Below are positions 1 to 62,393 of a stretch of 64,000 bases of DNA, one piece after another. This DNA comes from Chloroflexota bacterium (GTDB lineage: Bacteria; Chloroflexota; Dehalococcoidia; Lucifugimonadales; UBA2985): assembly GCA_028877205.1 (NCBI GenBank), contig JAPPHY010000011.1, forward strand, positions 17,218 to 81,217. The letters run 5' to 3'. Under the pieces are notes generated by a model. It made no database searches. It saw only the letters and a list, made by a program, of their open reading frames with translations, and was not told where the DNA came from. Each line of letters opens with the position of its first letter. Position 1 is the first letter of the stretch. The position numbers and the translations under genes are program-made.

Positions 1-1000
1 GCTGGCTGGGAGTAACCACGTTCACCACCACCATCTGGTCGCCCCGTCTGCCCTTGGCCGAGTATGGCACTCCCCTGCCCTTGATGCGGAACTCGGTACC
101 GGACTGTGTGCCGCCGGGGATTCGCAGAGTCTCCGGCCCGTTGAGCGTGGGAACCTCAAGCTCATCGCCCAGCGCCGCCTGCGCGAAGTTAATGGGCAGC
201 TCCAGGAGGATGTCGTGGTCCCTGCGGGAGAAGACGCCGTGGGGCTGCACCACCAGGTTCAGGTAGAGGTCGCCGGGTGTTCCGCCGTTGGAACCCGCGT
301 CGCCCTCGCGGCTGAGGCGGACCTGCATCCCGTCCTCCACGCCAGGCGGGATGTCGACGCGGATGCGCCGCCGCCTTCGCTCGCGTGCGGAGCCGCGGCA
401 GTGGGTGCACGGGCTGGTGATCACACTGCCCTCGCCGTTGCAAGCGGTACATGCGCCCACCTGCGTGAACTGGCCGAAGATGCTGCGCTGCACCCTGCGG
501 ACCTGGCCGGAGCCGTTGCACTGGGCGCACTGGGCCGGCGCGCTGCCCGGCTCTGCGCCGCTGCCCCTGCACTCGCGGCAGGGCTCGACGCGCTCCACGT
601 CAATCTCGCGGTCGATGCCGAACACCGCCTCCTCGAACGTCATGGTGGTTCCAGCGTGTATATCGCGGCCGCGCTGCGGGGCGCGGCGTGCGCGGGCGCC
701 GAACCCGCCGAAGAACGCGTCGAATATGTCGCCGAAGCCGCCGAAGTTCTCGAACCCCTCGAAGCCGCTGCCCCGTCCCGCGCCCATGTGCCCGAAGCGG
801 TCGTACTGCGCCCGCTTCTGCGGGTCGCTGAGCACCTGGTAGGCAGCGTTGATCTCCTTGAACCGCTCCTGCGCGCCGGGATCCTTGTTCCTGTCCGGAT
901 GGTACTCCAGCGCCAAGCGCCTGAACTTGGTCCTGATGTCCTCCTGGGACGCGCTGCGAGGCACGCCGAGAACCTGATAGAAGTCTTTCTGGTTGGCCAT
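1..1000 (-). CDS. dnaJ: Molecular chaperone DnaJ. The C-terminal end runs off the window start, so it is absent from the ORF track.
   Basis: Own minus-strand translation from ATG at 1000-998: MANQKDFYQVLGV...LEYHPDRNKDPGAQERFKEINAAYQVL (J domain with HPD). G/F linker GFEGFENFGGFGDIFDAFFGG. Four zinc motifs: CRECRGSG, CAQCNGSG, CTACNGEG, CTHCRGS. Confidence 0.93.
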   Translation of the reverse strand, partial: MANQKDFYQVLGVPRSASQEDIRTKFRRLALEYHPDRNKDPGAQERFKEINAAYQVLSDPQKRAQYDRFGHMGAGRGSGFEGFENFGGFGDIFDAFFGGFGARARRAPQRGRDIHAGTTMTFEEAVFGIDREIDVERVEPCRECRGSGAEPGSAPAQCAQCNGSGQVRRVQRSIFGQFTQVGACTACNGEGSVITSPCTHCRGSARERRRRRIRVDIPPGVEDGMQVRLSREGDAGSNGGTPGDLYLNLVVQPHGVFSRRDHDILLELPINFAQAALGDELEVPTLNGPETLRIPGGTQSGTEFRIKGRGVPYSAKGRRGDQMVVVNVVTPSQ

Positions 1001-1192
1001 GCTGCTAATCTGTCCAAACGTGGAATTGACCAACCTACATTATATTGCACGCCGAATACAGAGCACAACCTGAGCCGGGCGCACGTCGGTTGCGCCGGTG
1101 CCTACCTTGGAGTAGATTACGGAAGCTCCCGCAACTCACGATCGCAGGCCCAGCAGACATCTCCGATTGGTAGCAGGGAGGCAACGCCCAAC

Positions 1193-3808
1193 GTGCGTCA
1201 ATCACCGAGTCTCGTATTAGTCACCCTGGCTGCGACAGCAGCGCTGCTGCTCGCGTCCTGCACCGCGGCGCCGACGCCCACGCCAACGGCAACTCTCGCA
1301 CCCACGCCATCGCCTGCACCGACGCCCACGCCTGCGCCAACGCTCGACGACACGACGGACGCGGAGAGGGAGGTGCTGGTGATGCTGTACTTCGCCACGG
1401 GCGGCGCGCACTGGGGCAGCAACAACAACTGGCTCAGCGACGCGCCGCTGGGCAACTGGTTTGGGGTCGACACGGGGGAGGATGGCCGCGTGGTGAGCCT
1501 CTACCTGTGGGGCAACGGCATGAGGGGAGAGATACCGCCGGGGCTGGAGACTCTCGAACGCCTGCGATGGCTCGAGCTAGGCAACAACGGGCTGCACGGG
1601 GAGATACCGCCGGAACTGGCCACGCTTGCCGATCTGCAGACGCTGTCACTCGGAGCCAACCAGCTGACGGGCGAGATCCCACCGGAGTTGGGCCAACTCT
1701 CCAACCTAGAAGAGCTGCGCCTCAGCAGCAACAGTCTAAGCGGCAAGATACCGGTGGAGCTTGGCGAGCTGTCCAGCCTGACTGATCTGAGCCTCTCCGA
1801 CAACAGCCTAACCGGGAGCATCCCGGCGGAGCTCGGCAGGCTCAACGAGCTGGAATCACTGCGACTCAACGGCAACCTGCTGAGCGGGGAGATTCCGCCG
1901 GCGCTGGGCAACCTCTCCAGCCTGAGGCAGTTGGACCTACGCCACAACCGGTTGAACGGGGGCATACCGCCTGAACTTGGCGATCTCCTAGAACTCCAGG
2001 TGCTTGCCCTGAGCGATAACCATTTGAGCGGAGCTATACCACAGGAGCTGGGCAACCTCCGCAACCTGCGTGAGCTCGCGCTGAGCAACAATCGGTTGAG
2101 CGGGGAGATACCGCCGGAGCTCGGCGAGCTATCCGACCTGCGGCATATCCGGCTCGCGGGCAACTGGTTCTCGAGGTGTGCACCCGAATGGCTGCTCAAC
2201 GTGCCGAACAACGACCTAGAGGAAATGGGCCAATCCTTCGGCAATTCGGTCTCAACTCAACCATCCACCGCGTCTGCGGAGTGGACCGCGCTTGCGGCCC
2301 TGTACTGCGCCACGAGCGGTACAACCTGGAGGGACGACACGAACTGGCTTAGCGATTCGCCTCTGGGAGAGTGGTACGGGGTCACCACGGACCAAGGCGG
2401 CCGAGTTGTGAAGCTGAAACTGTCGGAGAACCGTCTTAGCGGGAAGTTGCCGCCGGAGATCGGAAATCTCTCCAGCCTGGAGGAGTTGTCCCTCTCTCGC
2501 AACGAGCTCACGGGCGAGATTCCTCCTGAACTGGGCAGTCTCACAAAGTTGACACTGCTCAATCTCAGCAGAAACGAGTTGACCGGTGAGATGCCGCCGG
2601 AGCTCGGAAGCCTTGTCGACCTGCGGAGACTGTATCTTGACGTCAACGAGCTGAGCGGCGCGATTCCGGCGGAATTTGGCAGCCTCGTCAACCTGGAGAA
2701 CCTGATTCTCACCGCCAATAAGCTCAGCGGCCCGTTGCCGCCGGAGCTTGGACATCTCGCCAAATTGGAAGGACTCTATCTGGGATTCAACGAGCTTGAG
2801 GGTGAATTGCCTGCGCAGCTAGGCAATCTCGCCAGCTTGGAGAACCTGATTCTACCCTCCAACCGGCTCAGCGGCGTAATACCGCCAGAACTGGGCCGGC
2901 TTGTCAACCTGGAAGCGCTGCACCTCTACGGCAATCACTTGAGTGGAGAGATACCGCCGGAACTCGGAAGTCTAGTCAATCTCGATTGGCTGGACCTTTC
3001 CAGCAATGAGTTGAGCGGCGGAATTCCTCCTGAGCTGGGCTACCTCACCGGCCTGGTAACGCTTACGCTCGGGTCCAACCCGTTGGGCGGAGAGATTCCG
3101 CCGGAACTCGGAGGTTTAGCTGAGCTCCATTGGCTTGACCTTTCCGGGAGCGAGCTGAACGGGCCAATTCCGCCGGAGCTGGGCAATCTGGCCAACCTCC
3201 GAACCTTGTTTCTTTGGGGAAACGAGCTTAGCGGGCCGATACCGCCGGAGCTGGGCAGGCTCTCCAGCCTGCAATATATGGACCTCATGTACAACCAGTT
3301 GAGCGGACAGATACCGCCGGAACTGGGCAGCCTCACGAATCTGAACATCCTGAGTCTCAGAAGGAACGAACTAAGCGGCGAGATTCCGCCGGAGCTAGGC
3401 AACCTCGCCAGGCTGGAAGTATTGGACATCGACAGTAACGAACTGAGTGGAGAGATTCCGCCGGAACTGGGCAGGCTCGCCAACCTCAGATACCTGGTTC
3501 TGTCAGACAATATGCTGAGCGGTGAGATACCGCCGGAGCTGGGCAATCTAGCCAATCTTGAATCACTGAATCTGTCTGACAACAACCTGAGCGGAGAAAT
3601 ACCGATTGAGTTGGGCGATCTCTCCAAGCTCGAATCCATTTCTCTGTCGGACAACCACTTGAGCGGGGAGATTCCACCGGAGCTGGACAATCCCCCCACA
3701 CTGCGCAGTCTCTACCTCTCCGGCAACCGGTTTACGGGCTGCATCCCACCTGAGCTAACTGGCGTTCTCACCAACGATCTCTACCAGCTCGGGCTGCCGT
3801 TCTGCTAG
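1193..3808 (+). CDS. Exported lipoprotein with two tandem modules of plant-type 24-residue leucine-rich repeats (about 10 + 19 repeats)
   Basis: GTG at 1193 is in frame with the 215..3808 ORF, with RBS GGGAGG at about 1176-1181. Signal/lipobox VLVTLAATAALLLASC, then a PTPTPT linker. Repeat consensus LxxLxxLxLxxNxLSGEIPPELGx. Two cap segments: WLSDAPLGNWFGVDTGEDGRVVSLYL and WLSDSPLGEWYGVTTDQGGRVVKLKL. The part of the ORF upstream of 1193 is antisense to dnaJ. Confidence 0.85.
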   Translation: MRQSPSLVLVTLAATAALLLASCTAAPTPTPTATLAPTPSPAPTPTPAPTLDDTTDAEREVLVMLYFATGGAHWGSNNNWLSDAPLGNWFGVDTGEDGRVVSLYLWGNGMRGEIPPGLETLERLRWLELGNNGLHGEIPPELATLADLQTLSLGANQLTGEIPPELGQLSNLEELRLSSNSLSGKIPVELGELSSLTDLSLSDNSLTGSIPAELGRLNELESLRLNGNLLSGEIPPALGNLSSLRQLDLRHNRLNGGIPPELGDLLELQVLALSDNHLSGAIPQELGNLRNLRELALSNNRLSGEIPPELGELSDLRHIRLAGNWFSRCAPEWLLNVPNNDLEEMGQSFGNSVSTQPSTASAEWTALAALYCATSGTTWRDDTNWLSDSPLGEWYGVTTDQGGRVVKLKLSENRLSGKLPPEIGNLSSLEELSLSRNELTGEIPPELGSLTKLTLLNLSRNELTGEMPPELGSLVDLRRLYLDVNELSGAIPAEFGSLVNLENLILTANKLSGPLPPELGHLAKLEGLYLGFNELEGELPAQLGNLASLENLILPSNRLSGVIPPELGRLVNLEALHLYGNHLSGEIPPELGSLVNLDWLDLSSNELSGGIPPELGYLTGLVTLTLGSNPLGGEIPPELGGLAELHWLDLSGSELNGPIPPELGNLANLRTLFLWGNELSGPIPPELGRLSSLQYMDLMYNQLSGQIPPELGSLTNLNILSLRRNELSGEIPPELGNLARLEVLDIDSNELSGEIPPELGRLANLRYLVLSDNMLSGEIPPELGNLANLESLNLSDNNLSGEIPIELGDLSKLESISLSDNHLSGEIPPELDNPPTLRSLYLSGNRFTGCIPPELTGVLTNDLYQLGLPFC

Positions 3809-5636: not shown

Positions 5637-6830
5637 ATGGCAGGCCCACTCGACGGCATCGTGGTGCTGGACGTCACGCACGTCCTGGCCGGCCCGTTCG
5701 CCGCCGCCACGCTCGCCGACCTCGGCGCGCGGGTCGTCAAGATCGAGCAGCCCATCGTCGGCGACCGCGCACGCGCCAGCGGCCCCTTCATCGACGGCGA
5801 GAGCTCCTACTTCATGAGCATCAACCGCGGCAAGCTGGGCGCCACCATCGACCTGTCCATGCCAGAAGGCCGCGACGCCTTCCTCAGGCTCGTCGATAGC
5901 GCCGACGTCGTCCTGGAGAACCTCTCGCCCGGCGCCATGCGACGCCTGGGCCTCGATTATCCTGTCCTTTCTCAGCACAACCCCCGCCTCGTCTACGCCG
6001 CCATATCCGGCTTCGGGCAGGACGGCCCATACGCCCACAAGCGCGCGCTGGACGTCGTGGTGCAGGGCATGGGCGGCGTCATGAGCATCACCGGCGAGCC
6101 GGGCGGCCCTCCCCTCCGTCCGGGCGTGTCACAGGGCGACATCACCGCTGGCCTCTACAGCGTCATCGGCATACTCGCTGCACTGCAGGAGCGCGAGCGG
6201 AGCGGGCTGGGCCAGATGGTCGATATCGCCATGCTCGACTGCCAGGTAGCCATCCTGGAGAACGCGCTCGGCCGGTATTTCGCCACGGGCGAGGTGCCCC
6301 AGCCGCTGGGCACGCGGCACCCCGTCATCGCCCCGTTCCAGGCGTTCCGCACCGCCGACGGCTACGTGACCATCGCGCTCGCCGACGGCCGGCAGGACAT
6401 GTGGCCGCTCTTCTGCTCCGCGATCGACCGCATCGACCTGATCGACGACCCGCGATACGAGGACGGCTGGGTGCGCAGCCGGCAGTGGGACGTGCTCGAG
6501 CCCATCATCGCCGAGGCCATCGCCAAGAGGACGACCGCGGAGTGGATCGAGGAACTGGAGGCGCTGGGCATTCCCTGCGGCCCCATCAACACCATCGACC
6601 AGGTTGCGCACGACCCGCAGGTGCTCCACCGCGGGATGATCACGGACGTGCCGCACCCGCGCCTGGGCAGCGTGCGCATGACTAATACGCCCGTGGGCCT
6701 GTCACGCACGCCCGGCGGCGCGGAGCAGCCCGCCCCGGACCTGGGCGAACACACCGAGCAGGTACTCAGGGAGCTGGCCGGCATGAGCGACGAGGAAATC
6801 GCCGCGTTGCGGGAGTCCGGCGCGATTTAG
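5637..6830 (+). CDS. Family III (CaiB/BaiF) CoA-transferase
   Basis: GPLDGIVVLDVTHVLAGPFAAATLADLGARVVKIE. Catalytic-Asp region RALDVVVQGMGGVMSITGEPGGPP. RBS GGAGGTG upstream. Confidence 0.9.
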   Translation: MAGPLDGIVVLDVTHVLAGPFAAATLADLGARVVKIEQPIVGDRARASGPFIDGESSYFMSINRGKLGATIDLSMPEGRDAFLRLVDSADVVLENLSPGAMRRLGLDYPVLSQHNPRLVYAAISGFGQDGPYAHKRALDVVVQGMGGVMSITGEPGGPPLRPGVSQGDITAGLYSVIGILAALQERERSGLGQMVDIAMLDCQVAILENALGRYFATGEVPQPLGTRHPVIAPFQAFRTADGYVTIALADGRQDMWPLFCSAIDRIDLIDDPRYEDGWVRSRQWDVLEPIIAEAIAKRTTAEWIEELEALGIPCGPINTIDQVAHDPQVLHRGMITDVPHPRLGSVRMTNTPVGLSRTPGGAEQPAPDLGEHTEQVLRELAGMSDEEIAALRESGAI

Positions 6831-6983: not shown

Positions 6984-7616
6984 CTAGCCGCGGCCTTCGA
7001 ACAGGGGAAGCGCCGACTGCAGGTCCTCCGGCGTGTTGACGTCCGCCCGCACGACGGGATCGTCAAGCTCCAGCTTGTAGATGTCGGAGGCGTGGCGGCG
7101 CGTGACCTCGCGCAGGCCCTCGCTCTCCTCCGCGATGGCGAGCAGCTCCGGCAGCAGCGATGCGTCGAAGATCATCGGGTGGCCGCCGCGGCCGCCGTAG
7201 ACGGGACTGGTGATGAGCGGCGAGCGCGACAGGTGCGCCTCGATGACGGTCCTCAGGACGTCGGGCGGCCTCGGCTGATCCACGGCAAGCACCAGGATGG
7301 CGGTCGCGTCCGGCGAGAGAGCGCGGAGACCGGCCTTGATGGACGTTGTCTTGCCCTGCCGGTAGTCGGGGTTCTCGACGATGGTCACGTCGGAGCGGCC
7401 GGCGATCGGAGCTCCCACCTCGTCGCCTCTATGACCGACGACGACCACTAGCTGTGAAACGCCCGCGTCGAGCAGTGAACTGACCTGGTACTCAATCAGG
7501 GTCGCGCCCTGCCAGGGCAACAGCGCCTTGAGGCGGCCCATGCGGGTGGACTCACCCGCGGCCAGCAGGATGGCCGAAACTCCGCTCATCGACGGCGGAT
7601 CAGGCCGGTACGCCAA
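6984..7616 (-). CDS. MobA/MocA-like nucleotidyltransferase (molybdenum cofactor nucleotidylyltransferase family)
   Basis: VSAILLAAGESTRMGRLKALLPWQG...VVVVGH. Adjacent to and overlapping the XdhC gene. Start uncertain (TTG 7616 or ATG 7589). Confidence 0.75.
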   Translation of the reverse strand: MAYRPDPPSMSGVSAILLAAGESTRMGRLKALLPWQGATLIEYQVSSLLDAGVSQLVVVVGHRGDEVGAPIAGRSDVTIVENPDYRQGKTTSIKAGLRALSPDATAILVLAVDQPRPPDVLRTVIEAHLSRSPLITSPVYGGRGGHPMIFDASLLPELLAIAEESEGLREVTRRHASDIYKLELDDPVVRADVNTPEDLQSALPLFEGRG

Positions 7617-8721
7617 CCTTCTGGGCTATGCGCTGGAGGTAGCGGTTCTCCATGGTCATGCCCTTGCCGGAACGACCCTCGCGGAACGCCACGATCTCCG
7701 CCACGATGCTCAGGGCGATCTCCTCCGGCGTCTTGGCGCCGATGTCCAGACCCACGGGCGCGTGCACGGACTGCAAGCGCTCCAGCGGAATGCCGTTCTT
7801 CAGAAGCTCCTCGTAGATGAGGATGGTCTTGCGGCGGCTGCCCACCAGGCCGACGTAGCCCGCGGGGCTGCGGACCGCAGCCTCCAGCGCGCGGTCGTCC
7901 TCGCGATGGCCACGGGTAGCCACCACGACGGATGTGTTGGGCCGGATGTCCAGCTGCTTCACACCCTCGGCATAGTCCGCCACCACAACGCTGTCCGCCT
8001 CCGGGAACCGCTCCTTGTTGGCGAACTCCGGCCGGTCGTCGACCACGTGGAGGCGCAGGCCCATCATCTTGACTATCGGGGCCAGCGACTTGCTGATGTG
8101 TCCGCCCCCGGCGACAACCACCGCGGCCGGCGTGGTGAACCCCTCCAGGAAGACCTGCGCACCGTCCTGCGTGTTCAGGGACTTGACGCGGCCGTAGTCG
8201 ATCAGCTCGCGGAGGGCCTCGACGGCCTCTGCGTCGCGGGCCGGGTCGCCCAGGGAGCCCTTGGCCTCGCCGCTGGCGTCGATGCAGATCTTGTCGCCAA
8301 TCTGCCCCATGCCCTTCGCGGGCTTCAGCAGGGTGGCCACGCCCACGCTGGGGCTGCCGTCGTATGCGTCCACGATGCTGCTGACCGTGGGCTGCACGGT
8401 TTCAGGCTCCAGTACGGGGTCGATGAGGAAGTACATCGTGCCGCCGCAGACCAGCCCCTCCCTCGCGGCGATGTCCTCGTTCAGCTCGTAGTCGGTGATC
8501 GTAGGGCCGCCGCCGTCCCGCAGGAGCATCTTGGCTGCGAACCAGATGTCGCCTTCAACGCAGCCGCCGCCCAGGGTGCCGACGCCGCTGCCGTCCTCTC
8601 GAACGAGGAGCTTGGCGCCCGGCTTCTGGGGCGTGGAACCCTTGGTGCCCACCACCGTGGCAATCACGAAGGGCCGGCCGTTGCTGAGGAGGTTCTGCGC
8701 TTCTCTGAAAACATCTTCCAT
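7600..8721 (-). CDS. XdhC/CoxI family molybdoenzyme maturation protein
   Basis: N-terminal domain RPFVIATVVGTKGSTPQKPGAKLLV. Rossmann-like C-terminal domain AAVVVAGGGHISKSLAPI...VVVATRGHREDDRAL. Confidence 0.85.
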   Translation of the reverse strand: MEDVFREAQNLLSNGRPFVIATVVGTKGSTPQKPGAKLLVREDGSGVGTLGGGCVEGDIWFAAKMLLRDGGGPTITDYELNEDIAAREGLVCGGTMYFLIDPVLEPETVQPTVSSIVDAYDGSPSVGVATLLKPAKGMGQIGDKICIDASGEAKGSLGDPARDAEAVEALRELIDYGRVKSLNTQDGAQVFLEGFTTPAAVVVAGGGHISKSLAPIVKMMGLRLHVVDDRPEFANKERFPEADSVVVADYAEGVKQLDIRPNTSVVVATRGHREDDRALEAAVRSPAGYVGLVGSRRKTILIYEELLKNGIPLERLQSVHAPVGLDIGAKTPEEIALSIVAEIVAFREGRSGKGMTMENRYLQRIAQKVGVPA

Positions 8722-8821
8722 GACAGCACTCCCGGATGAATAGAGATACCTTACGAATTATAACACATCAGAGCAGAGTGTGAACGCGCCTGACAGCCGC
8801 GAGGACGCCGATAGGGACTCG

Positions 8822-9847
8822 CTAGTCCGGCTTGCGAGCGTGGACGAAGTACATCGGCGTGAAGATGCCGAGACTGCCGGCGTCGACCATGGCCCGGGCG
8901 CACAGGTTCAGTGTCTCCGCTACTCGTACCGAGCCCTGCGGTGCAAGGCGTACGGCCTCGAGCACGCGGAGCGTATTGGTCGTTATCCAGCGTCCGACCG
9001 CGGTGCTGCGGAAGCTGGCGAATGACAGCCCGGAACCCACGAGCGGCTGATACCAGGGAATCGATGGGCCCGGCTGCGTGGCCAGGTCTCGCGCCTCCAG
9101 CACCTCGAATCCGACCTTCTGAAACGCGTCGTCGACCGTTGCCTGATCGTCGATCACGAGCAAGGCACCGCCCAGCTGAAGATCAGCCTTGATCCTGACG
9201 TGATTGGGGTCGTTGGGGTCAAACCGCTCCGTCATGCAGTACTCGTAGACGCCGAAATGGCCTCCCGGCTTCAGGAGGCGGAAGGCCTCGCCGTAGATGC
9301 TGGACTTGTCCGGCGCGTGGGCCGACGCCTCGATGGAGTAAACAGCATCGAATGACCCGTCAGGAGCGTCAACGTGCAGGAAGTCACAGAGCATGAACTC
9401 GGCCAGGTGCGTCAGCCCCGCCTCTTCAGTGAACCTGCGGGCGTGCTCCAGCTGGTAGGCGCTGGTGTTCACGCCAACGATCCTGGCCCCGCAGTGGCGG
9501 GCGATCTCCAGCAGCGGCCCACCGACGCCGCAGCCAAGGTCGGCGACCACCATACCGGGCTTCAGTTCCAGCGCGTCAGCTAAGTTTCGCTCATGCCTGG
9601 CAATCGACTGCCTGAAGCTCTCGCCCGGAACGCGGGGCGCAAAGTGAAAGGACCGGCCCCATCCATACTCGTAGAAGTCCGTGGCGAGGTTGTAGTAGAG
9701 GTTGCTGACGTTCTTCTCGGCGCTCTCGGCGGCCTTTACGCCGCCGTCCCTGGCGGCAGTGAAGTCCTCCTCATACTCGCGGACGGTCGAGGCGATTACA
9801 GAATCTCCTGGCTTTTCCTTCAGTGTCCTGGAGAGCCTGAATGGCAT
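8822..9847 (-). CDS. Sterol C-24 methyltransferase (Erg6/SMT)-family SAM-dependent methyltransferase
   Basis: Collinear with yeast Erg6 as I recall it. YYNLATDFYEYGWGRSFHF (SMT region I), ADLGCGVGGP (SAM motif I), YSIEASAHAP, LLKPGGHFGVYEY, IPWYQPL, and C-terminal FTPMYFVHARKP (Sterol_MT_C-like). Confidence 0.8.
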   Translation of the reverse strand: MPFRLSRTLKEKPGDSVIASTVREYEEDFTAARDGGVKAAESAEKNVSNLYYNLATDFYEYGWGRSFHFAPRVPGESFRQSIARHERNLADALELKPGMVVADLGCGVGGPLLEIARHCGARIVGVNTSAYQLEHARRFTEEAGLTHLAEFMLCDFLHVDAPDGSFDAVYSIEASAHAPDKSSIYGEAFRLLKPGGHFGVYEYCMTERFDPNDPNHVRIKADLQLGGALLVIDDQATVDDAFQKVGFEVLEARDLATQPGPSIPWYQPLVGSGLSFASFRSTAVGRWITTNTLRVLEAVRLAPQGSVRVAETLNLCARAMVDAGSLGIFTPMYFVHARKPD

Positions 9848-9952
9848 CGAAACGTACCCCGCAGATCTTGGGAGGGTGTGACAACTGCGACTCTACCGAT
9901 GCAGTGCCGCCGTGTCAACCTTGGAGGCGGCGCAGCTCAGGCCCGACCGTGG

Positions 9953-10696
9953 CTAATTCCTGTAGGACGAGTCCTTCCGGTCGATCGTGCGCAGGAGCCA
10001 GGCCCACTCCAGGTCTACGGGCTCCCTGTCTGCCAGGGCAGCAGCCTGTTCAATGGCTGGCAAGGGCGCCCGGCGGATGGCTTGGCCGGTCGATTGGGCC
10101 AGCACCTGGACCTTGCACGCCTGCTCCAGCTGCCACATCCTGAGCCACGCCTCAGCGACGGAGCGGCCCACGGTCAGCAGGCCGTGATTGCGCATGATCA
10201 TCGCATTCTTGTCGCCGAGGTCGGTCACGAGCCGTTCTCGCTCGTCGATGTCCACGGCCACTCCCTCGAACTCGTGGTAAGCGACGCGCTCGTGAAACTC
10301 ATAGCCGTCCTGCTGAAGCGGCATCAGCCCTTTCGCCAACGCCGACACCGCCATGCCGTATGGCGTGTGGGTGTGCATCACGCAGGTCACGTCGTGCCTG
10401 GCTGCGTGTATGGCGGAGTGGATGACGTAGCCGGTGACGTTTATTCTGTGATCGCCTTCGTCGAGGATGTTCCCGTCCATGTCGATCGTGACGAGGTTCG
10501 AAGCCGTGACTTCCTCGTACCCGAGGCCGTACTCATTGATGAGGAACTGGTCCTCCGTGTCCGGCACACGCGCCGTGATGTGGTTGTAGATGAGGGATGT
10601 CATGCCGAAGTGGTCGGTGAGGCGATATGCGGCGGCCAGGTCTACGCGGGCCTTCCACTCGGCATCGGGGAAGTTGCTTCGCTCATCCTGCGTCAT
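9953..10696 (-). CDS. Class II aldolase/adducin family protein
   Basis: GYVIHSAIHAARHDVTCVMHTHTPYGMAVSAL...MRNHGLLTVG. Confidence 0.85.
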   Translation of the reverse strand: MTQDERSNFPDAEWKARVDLAAAYRLTDHFGMTSLIYNHITARVPDTEDQFLINEYGLGYEEVTASNLVTIDMDGNILDEGDHRINVTGYVIHSAIHAARHDVTCVMHTHTPYGMAVSALAKGLMPLQQDGYEFHERVAYHEFEGVAVDIDERERLVTDLGDKNAMIMRNHGLLTVGRSVAEAWLRMWQLEQACKVQVLAQSTGQAIRRAPLPAIEQAAALADREPVDLEWAWLLRTIDRKDSSYRN

Positions 10697-11436: not shown

Positions 11437-12552
11437 ATGGTCAGCCTAGAAGCTAACGAGGGCGACAAGATATCGGCGATCGAAGCGGATGTGGAGGTTG
11501 AGGACCAAGACGTCGATTCAGTTGCGCCGGTGCGCTACGAGATCACCAGCTTCGGCGTAGACTTCGATGTAGAGGGGCTCTTCCGTCGCCTCGAACGAGG
11601 CGAAATCGCAATTCCAAAATTCCAACGGAACTTCGTCTGGAGTCTCAGACACTCCTCTAGATTCATCGAATCCTTGCTGTTGGGTCTGCCCGTTCCCGGC
11701 ATCTTCTTGTCTCGAGACTTCGACTCGGACAAGTACGTGGTGATCGACGGACAGCAGCGCCTCAAGAGCCTCCAGTTCTTCTGCAATGGAGTGTTTAACC
11801 CATCGGCTGAAGCAAACACACAGCGGACGTTCAAGTTGACTGGGGTTCAGCAAGAGTTCGAAGGACTAACGTACCAAGAGTTGTCACCCCGCGACAGGTT
11901 CCGTATCGACAACTCCGTCATTCACGCAACGGTCGTCAAACAGGACGCTCCGGCCGAGGACAATACAAGCGTATACCATGTCTTTGACAGGATTAACAGT
12001 ACTGGCCTACGCCTGTCAGCCCAAGAGATTCGCAGTGCTATATGTCACGGCAAGTTCATTGACAAGCTTGGCATCCTCAATGAGCATCCAAGCTGGAGGT
12101 CGATGTTCGGAAGAGTACACTCTCGGATGAGGGACCAAGAGCTTATACTCCGTTTCTTGGCATTTTTCTTCGACGAGGCTCTCTACAACCCTCCTATGTC
12201 AGAGTTCTTAACCGTGTTCGTTCAGAAGAATCGGAATCCACAGGATGATTTCCTTACGGAGTCTAATGACATATTCACCCAAACAATGGATGCCTTCATG
12301 GGTGCTCTGGGTGAACGCGCGTTCCGTATTGAACGGGCACTGAACGCTGCCATATTCGACTCGATGTCTGTCGGCTTGGCTAGGAGGATTGCCTCGTCGA
12401 ACAACCTTCCTGAGCCCGAGCCAATTAAGGCGGCCCACCGTTCTTTAATTGAAGATCGAGACTACTTGGAGGCGGTATCACGATCCACTGCAGATGAGCG
12501 GTCTGTTTCCATACGCATGACGAAAGCCGTCGAGCGCTTCGCAGTTCTGTGA
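11437..12552 (+). CDS. DUF262 (ParB-like nuclease/NTPase superfamily) protein without a DUF1524/HNH C-terminal domain
   Basis: IPKFQRNFVW and VVIDGQQRLKSL (DGQQR encoded at 11746-11760). Also FDRINSTGLRLSAQEIR and MRDQELILRFLAFF. RBS GAGGAGG before the ATG. AT-richer than the flanks (the line at 12181 counted 27/60 GC). Confidence 0.8.
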   Translation: MVSLEANEGDKISAIEADVEVEDQDVDSVAPVRYEITSFGVDFDVEGLFRRLERGEIAIPKFQRNFVWSLRHSSRFIESLLLGLPVPGIFLSRDFDSDKYVVIDGQQRLKSLQFFCNGVFNPSAEANTQRTFKLTGVQQEFEGLTYQELSPRDRFRIDNSVIHATVVKQDAPAEDNTSVYHVFDRINSTGLRLSAQEIRSAICHGKFIDKLGILNEHPSWRSMFGRVHSRMRDQELILRFLAFFFDEALYNPPMSEFLTVFVQKNRNPQDDFLTESNDIFTQTMDAFMGALGERAFRIERALNAAIFDSMSVGLARRIASSNNLPEPEPIKAAHRSLIEDRDYLEAVSRSTADERSVSIRMTKAVERFAVL

Positions 12553-12553
12553 G

Positions 12554-13057
12554 ATGCGTAATCGGGAACTCGCAAGCCAACTCGACTCGCTGAAGTCCCT
12601 GCTGGCAGTTACAGACACCGCCACGGGCGGCAATATAGAGCTCGTTGGTCATTGGGGAAGGTATCTCTGTGTCTTGACCGCCGGCTTCCTCGAGAACGCT
12701 CTAAGAGAAGTGTTTAGCGAATTCGTGAGAAATGCTGCTAGTCCTCAGGTAGCTAGTTTCGCCACTAGGAGATTGGAGCGAATCTCCAACCCAAAATCGG
12801 GCCGCTTCATCGAAACCGCACAAAGCTTCGACTTCGTATGGGCTAGCGACCTAGAAGACTTCCTGAATGCGGACGGAGGACGGAGGCGAAATGCTATAGA
12901 TTCGATTATGAGCAACCGCAACCGGATCGCCCATGGTGAGAGTGTTCAAGTATCCGTTGGCCGGGTCCGGGAGTACCTACCCGGTTGCATTCAAGTTGTC
13001 GAGTTTATTGAGAATCAGTTGCTCGGCACTACATCTCACGAGCCTAGAGCGGTTTGA
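12554..13057 (+). CDS. HEPN-domain protein (R-x4-H; resembles the MAE_28990/MAE_18760-type HEPN family), predicted RNase
   Basis: All-helical 167-aa protein. IDSIMSNRNRIAHGES contains R122-N-R-I-A-H127 (12917-12934). The ATG lies 1 nt after the DUF262 stop (TGAgATG). Confidence 0.65.
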   Translation: MRNRELASQLDSLKSLLAVTDTATGGNIELVGHWGRYLCVLTAGFLENALREVFSEFVRNAASPQVASFATRRLERISNPKSGRFIETAQSFDFVWASDLEDFLNADGGRRRNAIDSIMSNRNRIAHGESVQVSVGRVREYLPGCIQVVEFIENQLLGTTSHEPRAV

Positions 13058-17986: not shown

Positions 17987-19354
17987 CTAGTTTGAGCGAG
18001 ACGCCAATAGATTTGCCACCTCAATCGCGGCACTGTGGCCGCTGGAGAGAGCCCCGTTGACCGATGGCACGCGCATGTAGTCGCCGGCCAGCACAAGGTT
18101 GTCGATGCGCTCCGCGAGCTGTCCGGGGATCTTCGCCGCGGCTGCCAGCATTCCCGGCGTGCCCATGCACAGCGCCTCTTCCCAGCGGTAAACGCGAAAA
18201 TACAGTCCTTCGTGGTCGCCGGGAAGCGCAGAGCCTGGAGGCGCTTTACGGCGAGCGGCGCCCAAGAGCTGGCGCTTGATCTCTTCGTCGTCGAGCGGAA
18301 TGAGTTCCTTTGCGCGGTCGCGCCCGACGAGCAGGTCGAGAATGCTCCTGCCGGGAGGTGCGCAGGCGGGAAGAAAGGTGGACCGGTCCAGTAGAAGCGG
18401 CGTGTCGTCGTCCTCCGGGTAGAGCGCGCCGTGCCAGCCGGCAGGGAGTGGGCGGTGGTCGAGGCCAATCACCACGCGACAGCCGGTGGAGTAGCTGACG
18501 GTGCTGAGTGCGCGCCGAGTCTCAGGAGGCAGTTCGGGGATGAGTTCCGGCACCTTGGTGCCGGGGACGGCGCAGATGACCGCGTCCGTCTCGATGGTCT
18601 CCCCATCCGCCACCACGCCGGTCGCCGACCCGTCTGCGACTACGACCTTCCTGACCGGTGTCGATACGCGAATCGCATCTGCGCAAGCGTTCGCAAGCGC
18701 TTCGGCCAAGGAGCCGATGCCTCGCTCGGGCATATAGACCTTGCCTCCGCTCAGCATAGTTTCCCCAATGTAAGCCCGCATAAGCGCCTGGCCTGCGGGA
18801 AGTGGATCGCCAAGAACCATATCGAGGGGCCCTCTGAGTGTCACCTGTAGTTTCTCCGGCACACGAAGCCGCTTCAGGTAGTCTCCGAAGGACTCATCGT
18901 CGTCGATCTCGGCCAGGGGGCTGTCGCCTGCAAAGCTCATGTATGCCGATTGGCGATGGATCTGCCGCATGACCCTGAAGCCGGCCCACATGCCTGGGGG
19001 TGAGAGAAAGCCCATGGCAAAGGCCGTGCGCAGGTGGCGTACGAAGTTCCAGAGTGATTGGTCCGGCGTAGTGGTGACCCACCGCCCATTGCGGCGGTGA
19101 CCGAACTTCATCGTGGAGGGCACCAGCGGCAGGCCCAGCTCCTTGCAGATGCGGAATGCCGTGTCGTAGGTGGAGGTGAATACGAATGCGCCCATGTCCA
19201 GGGAGAATCCGTCCACCTTCTCGCCTTTTCCGCGTCCTCCCACGCGCTCCTGAGCCTCGAGCAGGAGAGGAGTGATGCCCAGCTTCGTCAGGGTGTAGGC
19301 CGCGCTGAGACCGGCGAAGCCACCGCCAACAATTACGACTCGCGGAGTGCTCAT
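17987..19354 (-). CDS. FAD-dependent oxidoreductase (amine oxidase / phytoene desaturase / protoporphyrinogen oxidase superfamily)
   Basis: RVVIVGGGFAGLSAAYTLTKLGITPLLLEAQERVGGR. C-terminal LVLAGDY. Confidence 0.8.
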   Translation of the reverse strand: MSTPRVVIVGGGFAGLSAAYTLTKLGITPLLLEAQERVGGRGKGEKVDGFSLDMGAFVFTSTYDTAFRICKELGLPLVPSTMKFGHRRNGRWVTTTPDQSLWNFVRHLRTAFAMGFLSPPGMWAGFRVMRQIHRQSAYMSFAGDSPLAEIDDDESFGDYLKRLRVPEKLQVTLRGPLDMVLGDPLPAGQALMRAYIGETMLSGGKVYMPERGIGSLAEALANACADAIRVSTPVRKVVVADGSATGVVADGETIETDAVICAVPGTKVPELIPELPPETRRALSTVSYSTGCRVVIGLDHRPLPAGWHGALYPEDDDTPLLLDRSTFLPACAPPGRSILDLLVGRDRAKELIPLDDEEIKRQLLGAARRKAPPGSALPGDHEGLYFRVYRWEEALCMGTPGMLAAAAKIPGQLAERIDNLVLAGDYMRVPSVNGALSSGHSAAIEVANLLASRSN

Positions 19355-19424: not shown

Positions 19425-19498
19425 TGGGCCGTCAGGGATTCGAACCCTGGACTCCCGGATTAAAAGTCCGGAGCTCTAACCGGCTGAGCTAACGGCCC
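19425..19498 (-). tRNA. tRNA-Lys (anticodon UUU), CCA not encoded
   Basis: Hand fold of the reverse complement: GGGCCGT-TA-GCTC-AGCCGGTTA-GAGC-T-CCGGA-CTTTTAA-TCCGG-GAGTC-CAGGG-TTCGAAT-CCCTG-ACGGCCC-A. Confidence 0.9.
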
Positions 19499-20381: not shown

Positions 20382-20456
20382 TCCCCGATAGCTCAGCGGT
20401 AGAGCGGGCGGCTGTTAACCGCTAGGTCGTAGGTTCGAATCCTACTCGGGGAGCCA
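20382..20456 (+). tRNA. tRNA-Asn (anticodon GUU), CCA encoded
   Basis: TCCCCGA-TA-GCTC-AGCGGTA-GAGC-G-GGCGG-CTGTTAA-CCGCT-AGGTC-GTAGG-TTCGAAT-CCTAC-TCGGGGA-G-CCA. Confidence 0.9.
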
Positions 20457-22918: not shown

Positions 22919-22994
22919 TGGTGGAGCTGGGGGGAGTCGAACCCCCGACCTCCTCAATGCCATTGAGGCGCTCTCCCGACTGAGCCACAGCCCC
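22919..22994 (-). tRNA. tRNA-Ala (anticodon GGC), CCA encoded
   Basis: Reverse complement GGGGCTG-TG-GCTC-AGTCGGGA-GAGC-G-CCTCA-ATGGCAT-TGAGG-AGGTC-GGGGG-TTCGACT-CCCCC-CAGCTCC-A-CCA. The G3:U70 Ala identity pair is present. Confidence 0.9.
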
Positions 22995-59966: not shown

Positions 59967-62393
59967 ATGGCAGAGGTTTTCGAAGGACTCAAGGTCGTTG
60001 ACTTCACCGAAGGGATGCTGGGAGCGGTTACCACCATGGTGCTCTCGGACTTCGGGGCCGACGTGGTCAAGGTGGAGCCTCCCGGCGGACACCGGTCCAG
60101 GAGCATTCCCGCGGCCCAGCAGTGGAACCGCGGCAAGAGAAGCGTGGTACTGGACCTGGAGAACGCGGAGGACCAGGAGAAGGCGCGACGATTGTCGCTT
60201 CAGTCGGACGTGGTCATCGAGAGCTTCACGCCCGGCGCCACCAATCGCATGGGCATCGACTACGAGACTCTCAGGGCCCAGCGTCCCGACCTGGTCTACG
60301 TGTCGCTGACCGGCTGGGGGCAGAAGGGCCCCTACGCGCACTACAAGCCCTACGAGGGCGCGGTGGCAGCCAAGATCGGCAGGATGATGGTCTTCTCCGG
60401 GCAGGCCAACCGGCCCGGGCCACACTACGCGGCGGTGCAGACCGCACACCACGCCGCCAACATGGGTGCCGTGCGCGGCATCATCGCCGCGCTCCACGTG
60501 CGAGACAAGACGGGCCAGGGCCAGAAGGTGGAGACCAGCCTCATGCAGGCCATGAACCTCTACGAGTTCATCGACCTGGTCTTCTGGCAGATGATGGTAC
60601 GCTTCCCTGACGTGTTCACGGAGCACCCCTGGCTGCGCGGCTACCCCACGCTCGCTTACATCCCGGTGCGCACCAAGGACGGCGAATGGATACAGATGGC
60701 GAACACCGTTCAGCGCCTCTTCGTGGCCATGATCCACGACATCGGCCTGGGCCACATCTTCGAAGACCCCCGCTTCGAAAAGGCGCCCGTGCTCCTGCCC
60801 GATGACCGCGAGGAGCTGCGCATGATCATGCTGTCCCGCTTCCAGGAGCAGACTCTGGAGGAGTGGATGGACCTGTTCGTCAACAAGACCAGGGACGTCG
60901 CCGCAGAGCCATACCGCACCTCCGAGCAGGGCATGACCCATCCCCAGATGATCCACAACGGCCACGTGCGGGACGTGGAAGACCCGGTGGTGGGCATGAT
61001 GAAGCAGCTCGGCCCCATTTCGCTCATGTCGGACACGCCCGGCCGGATTCAGGGGCCTTCGCCGCTGCCCGGCCAGCACACCGAGGAGGTGCTGGCGTCG
61101 CTGAACGGCTCCAACGGCCACCACGCCAACGGCTACGGCTCCGAGCCTCTGCCCACGCACCCGTTGGAGGACGTAACAGTGCTGGACCTGGCCACGGTCA
61201 TCGCCGGGCCGCTCGGCTGTGCCCTGCTGGGCGAGATGGGAGCAAGGGTGATCCGCATCGAGCCGCCCGGAGGCGATCTGCTGCGAGGCATGTCGCTGGG
61301 CGTAACCGCCAACAAGACGATGGCCGGCTCAGAGGACATCTGCCTGGACCTCAGCACGGAGGAGGGCCAGAAGATTGTGCACCAGCTGGTGGCCAAGGCA
61401 GACATCCTGGTACACAACATGCGCCCCGGCGCGCCTGAGCGTGTGGGCATAGGCTTCGACCAGCTCATGGAGATCAACCCGCAGTTGGTGTACGTCTACG
61501 CCGGAGGCTACGGCCCCACCGGTCCGCACTCGCACCGACCGTCCATGCACCCCATACCCGGCGCCGTCTGCGGCGGCGTGGTCACACAGATGGGCAAGGG
61601 CGCCATACCGCCTGCCGACCAGGAAATGACCCTGGAGGAGATCAAGGAGACCTCGCGCCGGTTCGGCCGCGCCAACGAGGGCAACCCCGATCCCAACTCG
61701 TCGATGGCCGTCTCAGTGGCGGCCCTGCTGGGCTTCCACGCCCGAAAGCGCACGGGCAAGGGCCAGTACATCACCTCGGCAATGATCCAGGCCAACGCAT
61801 ACGCCAATGCCGATGACTTCTTCTGGTACGAGGGCAAGCCCCCTCGGCAGATGCCCGACGCCGACGGCTACGGCCTCCACGCCCTCTACCGCCTCTATGA
61901 GGTCGAGAAGGGCTGGGTCTTCCTGGCCGCGCCGTGGGAGGAGGAGTGGCAGGCACTGTGCGAGACGATCGGCCGGGCGGACCTGCTGACCGACCCGCGG
62001 TTCGCTACCCCTGAGGCCCGCCGCGAGAACGACGATGCGCTGGTCGAGGAGCTTGGCAGCGTGCTCGCCACCCGCGAGCCCTCGGAGTGGGAGAAGCTGC
62101 TCATCGACGCGGGCGTGACGTGCGTCCGGGCGGAGGACTCCGGGCCGTACCAGTTCCACATGGAAGACCCGCACGTCCGGGAGAACGGCTACCTCACGGA
62201 GGTGGAGTCGGTGAGGTTCGGCAAGTTCTGGCGCTACAGCCCCATAGTGCGGTTCTCGCAGACCTCCCCCAAGGCGGGTGCAGGCCCACTGCGTGGCCAG
62301 CACAACGACTCCGTGCTCGAGGAGCTTGGATACAGCGCAGAGCAGATCGGCGACCTGGAGCAGCGGAAGGTAATCGCCAGGGAGGCTGTATAG
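59967..62393 (+). CDS. Tandem-duplicated family III (CaiB/BaiF) CoA-transferase, two complete domains in one 808-aa chain
   Basis: Domain 1: FEGLKVVDFTEGMLGAVTTMVLSDFGADVVKVEPPGG. Domain 2: LEDVTVLDLATVIAGPLGCALLGEMGARVIRIEPPGGD. Confidence 0.85.
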   Translation: MAEVFEGLKVVDFTEGMLGAVTTMVLSDFGADVVKVEPPGGHRSRSIPAAQQWNRGKRSVVLDLENAEDQEKARRLSLQSDVVIESFTPGATNRMGIDYETLRAQRPDLVYVSLTGWGQKGPYAHYKPYEGAVAAKIGRMMVFSGQANRPGPHYAAVQTAHHAANMGAVRGIIAALHVRDKTGQGQKVETSLMQAMNLYEFIDLVFWQMMVRFPDVFTEHPWLRGYPTLAYIPVRTKDGEWIQMANTVQRLFVAMIHDIGLGHIFEDPRFEKAPVLLPDDREELRMIMLSRFQEQTLEEWMDLFVNKTRDVAAEPYRTSEQGMTHPQMIHNGHVRDVEDPVVGMMKQLGPISLMSDTPGRIQGPSPLPGQHTEEVLASLNGSNGHHANGYGSEPLPTHPLEDVTVLDLATVIAGPLGCALLGEMGARVIRIEPPGGDLLRGMSLGVTANKTMAGSEDICLDLSTEEGQKIVHQLVAKADILVHNMRPGAPERVGIGFDQLMEINPQLVYVYAGGYGPTGPHSHRPSMHPIPGAVCGGVVTQMGKGAIPPADQEMTLEEIKETSRRFGRANEGNPDPNSSMAVSVAALLGFHARKRTGKGQYITSAMIQANAYANADDFFWYEGKPPRQMPDADGYGLHALYRLYEVEKGWVFLAAPWEEEWQALCETIGRADLLTDPRFATPEARRENDDALVEELGSVLATREPSEWEKLLIDAGVTCVRAEDSGPYQFHMEDPHVRENGYLTEVESVRFGKFWRYSPIVRFSQTSPKAGAGPLRGQHNDSVLEELGYSAEQIGDLEQRKVIAREAV

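Follow-up and report, generated by a model that had tools for sequence, protein, structure and literature searches.

The gene analysed here is of an already known kind: it belongs to a large bacterial clade of sponge-symbiont sterol C-24 methyltransferases (SMTs) whose description and in vitro testing date from 2022 to 2025. Brown et al. 2023 (PMC10070321) retrieved 7966 SMT homologues from IMG metagenomes; of the 24 bacterial SMTs that they assayed, 20 were active, three yielded 24-isopropyl sterols, and 24-ethyl sterols were obtained from three symbiont SMTs. Their material included symbiont contigs in which the SMT adjoins a fused SMO/OSC, as well as a Chlamydiae MAG with an active SMT and no other sterol genes. 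Ten further SMTs were assayed by Brown and Welander 2025 (bioRxiv 10.64898/2025.12.19.695621), who identified 25 residues conserved in all active SMTs. Overall, ten of the 34 tested bacterial enzymes were inactive in vitro, four of them residue-complete, and 24 of the 28 that carry all conserved residues were active. Kelly et al. 2022 (PMC9531527) reported that SMT1/ERG6 is enriched in sponge-symbiont MAGs, that ERG24-CYP51-LSS clusters occur in 115 of 537 sponge MAGs (Dehalococcoidia included), and that sterol genes, the SMT among them, frequently lie dispersed over bacterial chromosomes.

An SMT gene of this type was found in the window, i.e. the whole 64-kb stretch of DNA analysed in this work. 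It lies on the minus strand, which had been left unstated in an earlier note on this DNA. Its features are the following:

8822..9847, minus strand: SMT coding sequence, 341 aa, from the ORF list and its translation (ATG start, stop codon included)
9641..9673, minus strand: sterol-binding Region I, YEYGWGRSFHF, residues 59-69 (Erg6 81-91), from alignment and motif match
9254..9541, minus strand: Methyltransf_11 core (class I SAM-methyltransferase), residues 103-198, from Pfam
9515..9541, minus strand: SAM-binding Region II, DLGCGVGGP, residues 103-111, which opens the Methyltransf_11 core
9167..9169, minus strand: Gly227, equivalent to Erg6 position 249, from alignment to Erg6
8828..9022, minus strand: Sterol_MT_C, residues 276-340, containing FTPMYFVHARKP, from Pfam

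The product combines a Region II of the form DxGxGxxGP, a Sterol_MT_C domain and a Region I of the form Y81-E-Y83-GWGxxFHF. Sterol_MT_C (PF08498) was detected with 85.9 bits against a cutoff of 21.7 bits (E=2e-24) over profile positions 1-65 of 66, and Methyltransf_11 with E=6.6e-20. The latter core includes both Glu173 (Erg6 E195) and Gly195 (Erg6 G217). Further motifs are IEASAHAP (residues 172-179), PWYQPL (residues 264-269) and the C-terminal motif FTPMYFVHARKP (residues 329-340). All the motifs quoted in the earlier note (Region I, the SAM motif, IEA..HAP, PWY.PL and the C-terminal block) are present, and its proposal of a full-length Erg6/SMT homologue is borne out by the intact 341-aa ORF, the Pfam domains and the end-to-end alignment to Erg6.

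For this comparison, the Saccharomyces cerevisiae Erg6 sequence was checked against 28 residue numbers given in bioRxiv 10.64898/2025.12.19.695621. Amino acid identity between the window SMT and Erg6 was 39.7% over 340 aligned positions with short gaps only (pairwise alignment), and 37.8% in an alignment of 152 sequences. Both proteins share the Region I core YEYGWG.SFHF, Region II, E195, G217 and the C-terminal FTPM..ARKP block, whereas Erg6 is longer by about 22 N-terminal residues and by a 13-residue C-terminal tail. Position 249 is Asp in Erg6, which transfers just one methyl group and sits within the complete ergosterol pathway of a eukaryote; the window SMT has Gly at this position.

Once aligned to Erg6, the window SMT proved identical at 25 of the 25 residues conserved across active SMTs (list of Brown and Welander 2025). 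Tyr is found at Erg6 positions 81 and 83 (Tyr59 and Tyr61), Gly at position 249 and Ala at position 243, and five of the eleven propylator-enriched residues are present (A152, H180, G249, L343 and F362). According to bioRxiv 10.64898/2025.12.19.695621, in which mutagenesis was carried out, Gly249 is required, though not enough, for propylation, Phe at 81 or 83 raises C30 output, and E243A lowered C30 output in Chl_SMT. Gly249 is common to the window SMT and to the propylating bacterial enzymes, i.e. A. aerophoba JGIcombinedJ30088_10000835 "1 of 2", Ga0209021_1000146, JGIcombinedJ30088_1000330310 and Chlamydiae sp. "1 of 2". All four of these have Phe at 81 and/or 83, whereas the window SMT has Tyr at both positions; moreover, one propylator adjoins a fused SMO/OSC, CYP51, ERG24 and SdmAB, and the window SMT is without such neighbours. 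Gly249 was retrieved in 80 of the 87 clade members, whereas 59 of 64 distant SMTs from soil or freshwater carry Asn or Asp.

Two assayed enzymes, whose contigs were recovered by a metagenome scan, fall within the same clade as the window SMT in a simple neighbor-joining (NJ) tree inferred with BLOSUM62. The first (L083), encoded on LXNJ01000389.1 from a Petrosia ficiformis metagenome, was assayed by Brown et al. 2023 and appears again in Brown and Welander 2025; it is 61.6% identical to the window SMT across all 341 residues. The second (L085), i.e. Ga0209754_100026449 on contig Ga0209754_1000264 from an Aplysina aerophoba metagenome, was assayed by Brown and Welander 2025 and is more distant (54% identity) and belongs to a sister subclade, L085-L087. 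Tyr81, Tyr83 and Gly249 are common to the three proteins. Supplementary Figure 1 of bioRxiv 10.64898/2025.12.19.695621 places both assayed enzymes in its active section, in a block labelled (2) that immediately follows the four propylators. Each of them apparently adds two carbons, a class read from the row order of an OCRed figure, and this reading agrees with the 2023 count of three symbiont SMTs yielding 24-ethyl sterols (PMC10070321). The SMT of LXNJ01000389 further resembles that of the window in keeping the 25 conserved residues, in having no cyclase adjoining it and in its sponge-associated, Dehalococcoidia-type context. The two differ in that activity was measured in an assay for the former and is predicted from sequence for the latter, and in that the former lies in an SDR/SRPBCC/SSF/FAD oxidase/GPP34::P450/MMPL/Rieske island whereas the window SMT is located between an aldolase and XdhC/MocA. 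The NJ tree, which carries no support values, groups the window SMT with assayed, active bacterial SMTs.

While domain architecture, residue states, clade membership, purifying selection, the loss of synteny and the lack of sterol-synthesis genes in the 64 kb are shown by the sequence data, we infer the activity, methylation number and sterol source of the window SMT. It is likely to be a functional SAM:delta-24-sterol C-methyltransferase, probably carrying out one to two successive methylations. By analogy with the family, SAM would bind at the DLGCGVGGP loop and the sterol side chain would sit between Region I (Tyr59/Tyr61) and Gly227. C-24 of a delta-24(25) sterol, e.g. desmosterol, would then receive the methyl group, which yields 24-methyl(ene) sterols. 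Since Erg6 position 249 is occupied by Gly, the delta-24(28) product is likely to be methylated a second time, leading to 24-ethyl(idene) sterols. A third transfer, which would build a 24-isopropyl side chain, is conceivable and disfavoured because neither 81 nor 83 is Phe. From the residue states, the predicted products are thus C28 and C29 sterols, with C30 scarce or absent.

General databases proved less specific. The NCBIfam scan of the window SMT returned generic methyltransferase families only, all far under cutoff, and no curated prokaryotic SMT model exists in this collection. Similarly, the PDB sequence search returned generic class I methyltransferases only, the best being MitM (4e-21); PDB 6f5z, "24-sterol C-methyltransferase" by name, matched only the core (4.5e-8), and no solved SMT structure was found among the PDB matches to anchor substrate contacts. 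SMT-like triterpene methyltransferases of Botryococcus braunii act on non-sterol olefins, and the window enzyme might likewise act on squalene, another triterpenoid or a polyprenyl lipid. The missing curated model and structure leave room for such a substrate, as does the lack of a sterol-synthesis gene nearby. We nevertheless hold this to be decidedly unlikely: Region I is intact, 25 of 25 residues of sterol-active SMTs are kept, two clade members methylate desmosterol and 24-methylenecholesterol in vitro, and in related loci the neighbouring genes are of sterol type, encoding a transporter with a sterol-sensing domain and an oxygenase resembling KshA.

The distribution of the gene was assessed at several levels. 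A protein search gave 3623 matches at E<=1e-10, including more than 100 full-length 341-aa proteins at 66-87% identity, and a scan of species-representative genomes gave 212 relatives. Most of the latter belong to Dehalococcoidia or other Chloroflexota, the other hosts being Acidimicrobiia (Candidatus Poriferisocius), Latescibacterota and Gemmatimonadota; many of them come from sponge MAG projects. When the SMT family (E<=1e-30) was clustered at 50%, 358 clusters were obtained, and the clade of the window SMT corresponds to approximately one of them. At 61-87% identity, this clade occurs in hundreds of sponge-symbiont MAGs from four phyla. The earlier note had mentioned reports of bacterial SMT homologues from uncultured, partly sponge-associated bacteria, which is right (PMC10070321, PMC9531527); the rarity of bacterial SMTs that it also stated no longer holds for the sponge niche, given the 212 relatives and 3623 matches found here and the homologues counted in IMG (PMC10070321).

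The four phyla are interleaved in the NJ tree at 68-72% identity to the window SMT, which fits horizontal spread within the sponge niche, and horizontal transfer is the probable route by which the gene was distributed among sponge symbionts. The clusters of Kelly et al. (PMC9531527) present a comparable picture, with the same sponge niche, hosts among Dehalococcoidia, Acidimicrobiia and Gemmatimonadetes, SMT1/ERG6 enrichment and evidence of horizontal transfer.

The window SMT is hosted by an uncultured member of the Dehalococcoidia (Chloroflexota) that lives in association with sponges. An identical protein is recorded for sponge-metagenome contigs ROBB21-1_SAMN13943215/14, whose names presumably refer to the metagenomes of coral-reef demosponges published by Robbins et al. 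2021 (PMC8163846). The window contains dense bacterial genes and three tRNAs, and it encodes near the SMT a 1197-aa eukaryote-like protein with leucine-rich repeats (Pfam). Leucine-rich-repeat eukaryote-like proteins are typical of sponge symbionts. A 933-aa M16 peptidase was also noted among the window genes during Pfam annotation of the stretch. Contamination by the eukaryotic host was ruled out by the bacterial neighbours, the three tRNAs and the occurrence of homologues on closed bacterial chromosomes of 2-5 Mb. Recent foreign insertion was likewise ruled out on the basis of composition, since the GC content of the SMT gene (63.4%) matches that of the window (63.6%).

The best genome match was a closed Dehalococcoidia chromosome, OY821663.2 (L001), whose SMT is 82% identical to that of the window and whose XdhC, CoA-transferase and MocA are 92%, 87% and 86% identical, respectively. 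The dN/dS ratio was about 0.15 (0.108/0.693 against L001 and 0.076/0.553 against another close relative, L082), and the window SMT is under purifying selection. These data bear on whether the gene could be a non-functional or decaying remnant of horizontal transfer. Its isolation, with pathway partners not seen in the window, and the proportion of tested bacterial SMTs that are inactive in vitro (~30%) would be compatible with decay. Set against this are an intact ORF of the clade-typical 341 aa, the dN/dS value, the retention of all catalytic and binding residues, a GC content equal to that of its surroundings and the maintenance of the clade in hundreds of genomes, which together make a relic highly unlikely. 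Purifying selection, the assays of clade members and an intact Region I make both a relic and a non-sterol substrate unlikely, and a functional sterol methyltransferase is the reading retained below.

The genes surrounding the SMT were then considered. They are arranged as follows:

9953..10696, minus strand: class II aldolase, upstream neighbour, from Pfam
9890..9918, minus strand: promoter-like site TTGACA-17-TAGAGT with 10 of 12 matches, within the 105 bp that separate the aldolase from the SMT start (consensus match only)
8757..8784, minus strand: promoter-like site TTCACA-16-TATAAT with an upstream TG and 11 of 12 matches, in the gap from the SMT stop to the XdhC start
7600..8721, minus strand: XdhC, downstream neighbour, from Pfam
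about 6984..7589, minus strand: MocA-like NTP_transf_3 gene, downstream, from Pfam

The neighbours named in the earlier note (class II aldolase, XdhC and MocA) were confirmed by Pfam. Aldolase, SMT, XdhC and MocA genes stand head to tail on the minus strand, with a gap of about 100 bp on each side of the SMT. Among relatives, L001 (where 2.7 kb are inserted) and L082 (which lacks the aldolase) are alone in retaining the arrangement; the aldolase/XdhC/MocA adjacency is absent from the approximately 85 other clade loci, and an aldolase directly adjoins the SMT only in the identical contig, in no other relatives. Three promoter-like hexamer pairs were counted in the region versus 0.6 expected, Chloroflexota promoters being poorly defined. 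An operon with aldolase, XdhC and MocA was rejected, as no order is conserved and promoter-like sites occur in both flanking gaps, and the "operon-like context" put forward earlier is uninformative. The second site (8757..8784) argues that XdhC/MocA form a separate transcription unit and, given the lost synteny and the sites in both gaps, the SMT gene looks like a stand-alone unit. XdhC and MocA serve in molybdenum-cofactor maturation and have no relation to the SMT, and the aldolase is functionally unlinked to it.

Sterol-synthesis genes were searched for in the window using Pfam on nearly all genes, and cyclases were additionally searched for with a DCTAE/QW motif scan of the window and the clade loci. 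None of oxidosqualene cyclase, squalene epoxidase, CYP51, sterol reductase (ERG24) and SdmAB was found in the 64 kb, in agreement with the earlier note as regards the cyclase and the epoxidase. The window therefore holds no sterol gene cluster, defined as an SMT adjoining a cyclase and two or more further sterol-synthesis genes. Neither a cyclase nor any other sterol-synthesis gene was found within 10 kb of 87 clade loci, and the clade differs in this respect from the clusters of Kelly et al. (PMC9531527), which carry ERG24, CYP51 and LSS and may or may not include an SMT. Fused cyclases adjoining an SMT were detected in four distant soil contigs only, whose SMTs are 43-46% identical to that of the window.

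Two origins of the sterol substrate were weighed in the light of this result, and we give them roughly equal weight. The bacterium may make no sterols itself, the SMT alkylating sponge-derived (host or diet) sterols and feeding the unusual 24-alkyl sterol pool of the sponge; we regard this as a serious possibility, somewhat short of an even chance. It would account for the lack of sterol-synthesis genes in the window and around the 87 clade loci, and it has a precedent in the Chlamydiae MAG (PMC10070321), whose SMT was likewise proposed to alkylate acquired sterols. The genome view, however, is limited to 64 kb, and ERG24-CYP51-LSS clusters are known from sponge Dehalococcoidia MAGs in which sterol genes are often scattered (PMC9531527), so that a cyclase could lie elsewhere in this genome. 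Alternatively, the SMT may complete a bacterial sterol pathway whose cyclase and demethylase genes are located elsewhere on the chromosome, an option of comparable, tentative standing. The same scattered genes and the steroid gene clusters of 115 of 537 sponge MAGs speak for such de novo synthesis (PMC9531527), as do the symbiont contigs with an SMT adjoining a fused SMO/OSC (PMC10070321). It is weakened by the count of 0 of 87 clade loci with an OSC within 10 kb, all OSC-adjacent SMTs in our sample being the distant soil enzymes.

Additional insight was gained from the loci of relatives. In approximately ten Dehalococcoidia loci (L083, L054, L025, L042 and L043, and partly L007, L009, L010, L026 and L060), the SMT is part of an island that includes an SDR, an AHSA1/SRPBCC lipid-binding-fold protein, an SSF symporter and an amine-oxidase-like flavoprotein. 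The island also contains a GPP34::P450 fusion (674 aa, with only faint similarity to CYP120 or CYP51), an MMPL transporter bearing a sterol-sensing domain (SSD) and a Rieske/KshA_C oxygenase. Taken as a whole, this island looks like sterol handling without a cyclase, and the proximity of the SMT to an MMPL/SSD RND transporter, the GPP34::P450 fusion, SRPBCC and Rieske/KshA_C favours the use of host sterols. Two points temper this argument, i.e. neither the window nor the relatives closest to it, L001 and L082, contain the island, and an SSD-RND pump would be equally able to export self-made sterols.

Side-chain-alkylated steranes, above all 24-isopropylcholestane, are read as eukaryote or sponge fossils. 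Each bacterial enzyme that builds alkylated side chains weakens this eukaryote or sponge reading. We consider it unlikely, on present evidence, that a cyclase-less Dehalococcoidia symbiont alkylates sponge sterols to 24-ethyl or even 24-isopropyl products through an SMT with Gly249. If true, the sponge sterol profile behind the 24-isopropylcholestane "earliest animal" biomarker would in part be shaped by abundant Chloroflexota symbionts and not by the animal. The window SMT is one more member of a documented and very large sponge-symbiont clade and, as such, leaves the general picture unchanged. Finally, as a cyclase never adjoins the SMTs of this clade and some relatives carry the island, the remodelling of host sterols by symbionts becomes testable on existing closed genomes.

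Position 249 (yeast Erg6 numbering; Gly227 in the window's product) was compared in an alignment of 151 sterol C-24 methyltransferases (SMTs) retrieved from the loci. Glycine was nearly fixed at this position in the sponge-symbiont clade (80/87), whereas Asn or Asp was found in 59 of the 64 soil and freshwater SMTs; the glycine on which propylation depends is thus a trait of the clade as a whole and not a rarity.

Loci from Latescibacterota (L012 and L058), Gemmatimonadota (L033) and Acidimicrobiales (L008) were further compared with those of Dehalococcoidia. As the SMTs of four phyla share 68-72 % identity with the window's SMT and are interleaved in the tree, their sequences indicate horizontal transfer of the SMT gene among sponge symbionts.

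Besides the SMT gene, the following features were identified in the window:

215-3808, plus strand: LRR protein (1197 aa), nearly all leucine-rich repeats (LRR_1, 297 bits; LRR_8 in 10 stretches)
5637-6830 and 59967-62393, plus strand: several family III CoA-transferase genes
11437-13057, plus strand: adjacent genes encoding GmrSD_N (371 aa) and HEPN_RiboL-PSP (167 aa) proteins
17987-19354, minus strand: full-length flavin amine oxidase (455 aa), 8 kb away from the SMT gene
19425-19498: tRNA-Lys(TTT)
20382-20456: tRNA-Asn(GTT)
22919-22994: tRNA-Ala(GGC)

Family III CoA-transferases are abundant in Dehalococcoidia sponge symbionts, and one of those in the window is of double length (808 aa). 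The GmrSD_N/HEPN_RiboL-PSP pair, around which GC content drops to 0.54 (12-14 kb), looks like an anti-phage defence module. The LRR protein belongs to a eukaryote-like repeat class enriched in sponge symbionts (PMC8163846).

A homologue of the amine oxidase (82 % identical; 8221-9576 of L015, another Dehalococcoidia chromosome) is encoded directly upstream of SMT, this being the one instance in which the two genes were found side by side.

An SMT island that contains no cyclase is conserved in one Dehalococcoidia subclade (L083 and related loci):

8236-19665 of L083 (contig LXNJ01000389.1, Petrosia ficiformis metagenome): cyclase-free SMT island, with further copies in L054, L025, L042 and L043

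Partial versions are present in L007, L009, L010, L026 and L060. The island comprises genes for an SDR, an SRPBCC/AHSA1 protein, an SSF symporter, an amine-oxidase-like flavoprotein, a 674-aa GPP34::P450 fusion, an MMPL/sterol-sensing-domain RND transporter and a Rieske/KshA_C oxygenase. Brown et al. (PMC10070321) did not describe it as a sterol cluster. This island is possibly a module for sterol uptake and remodelling.
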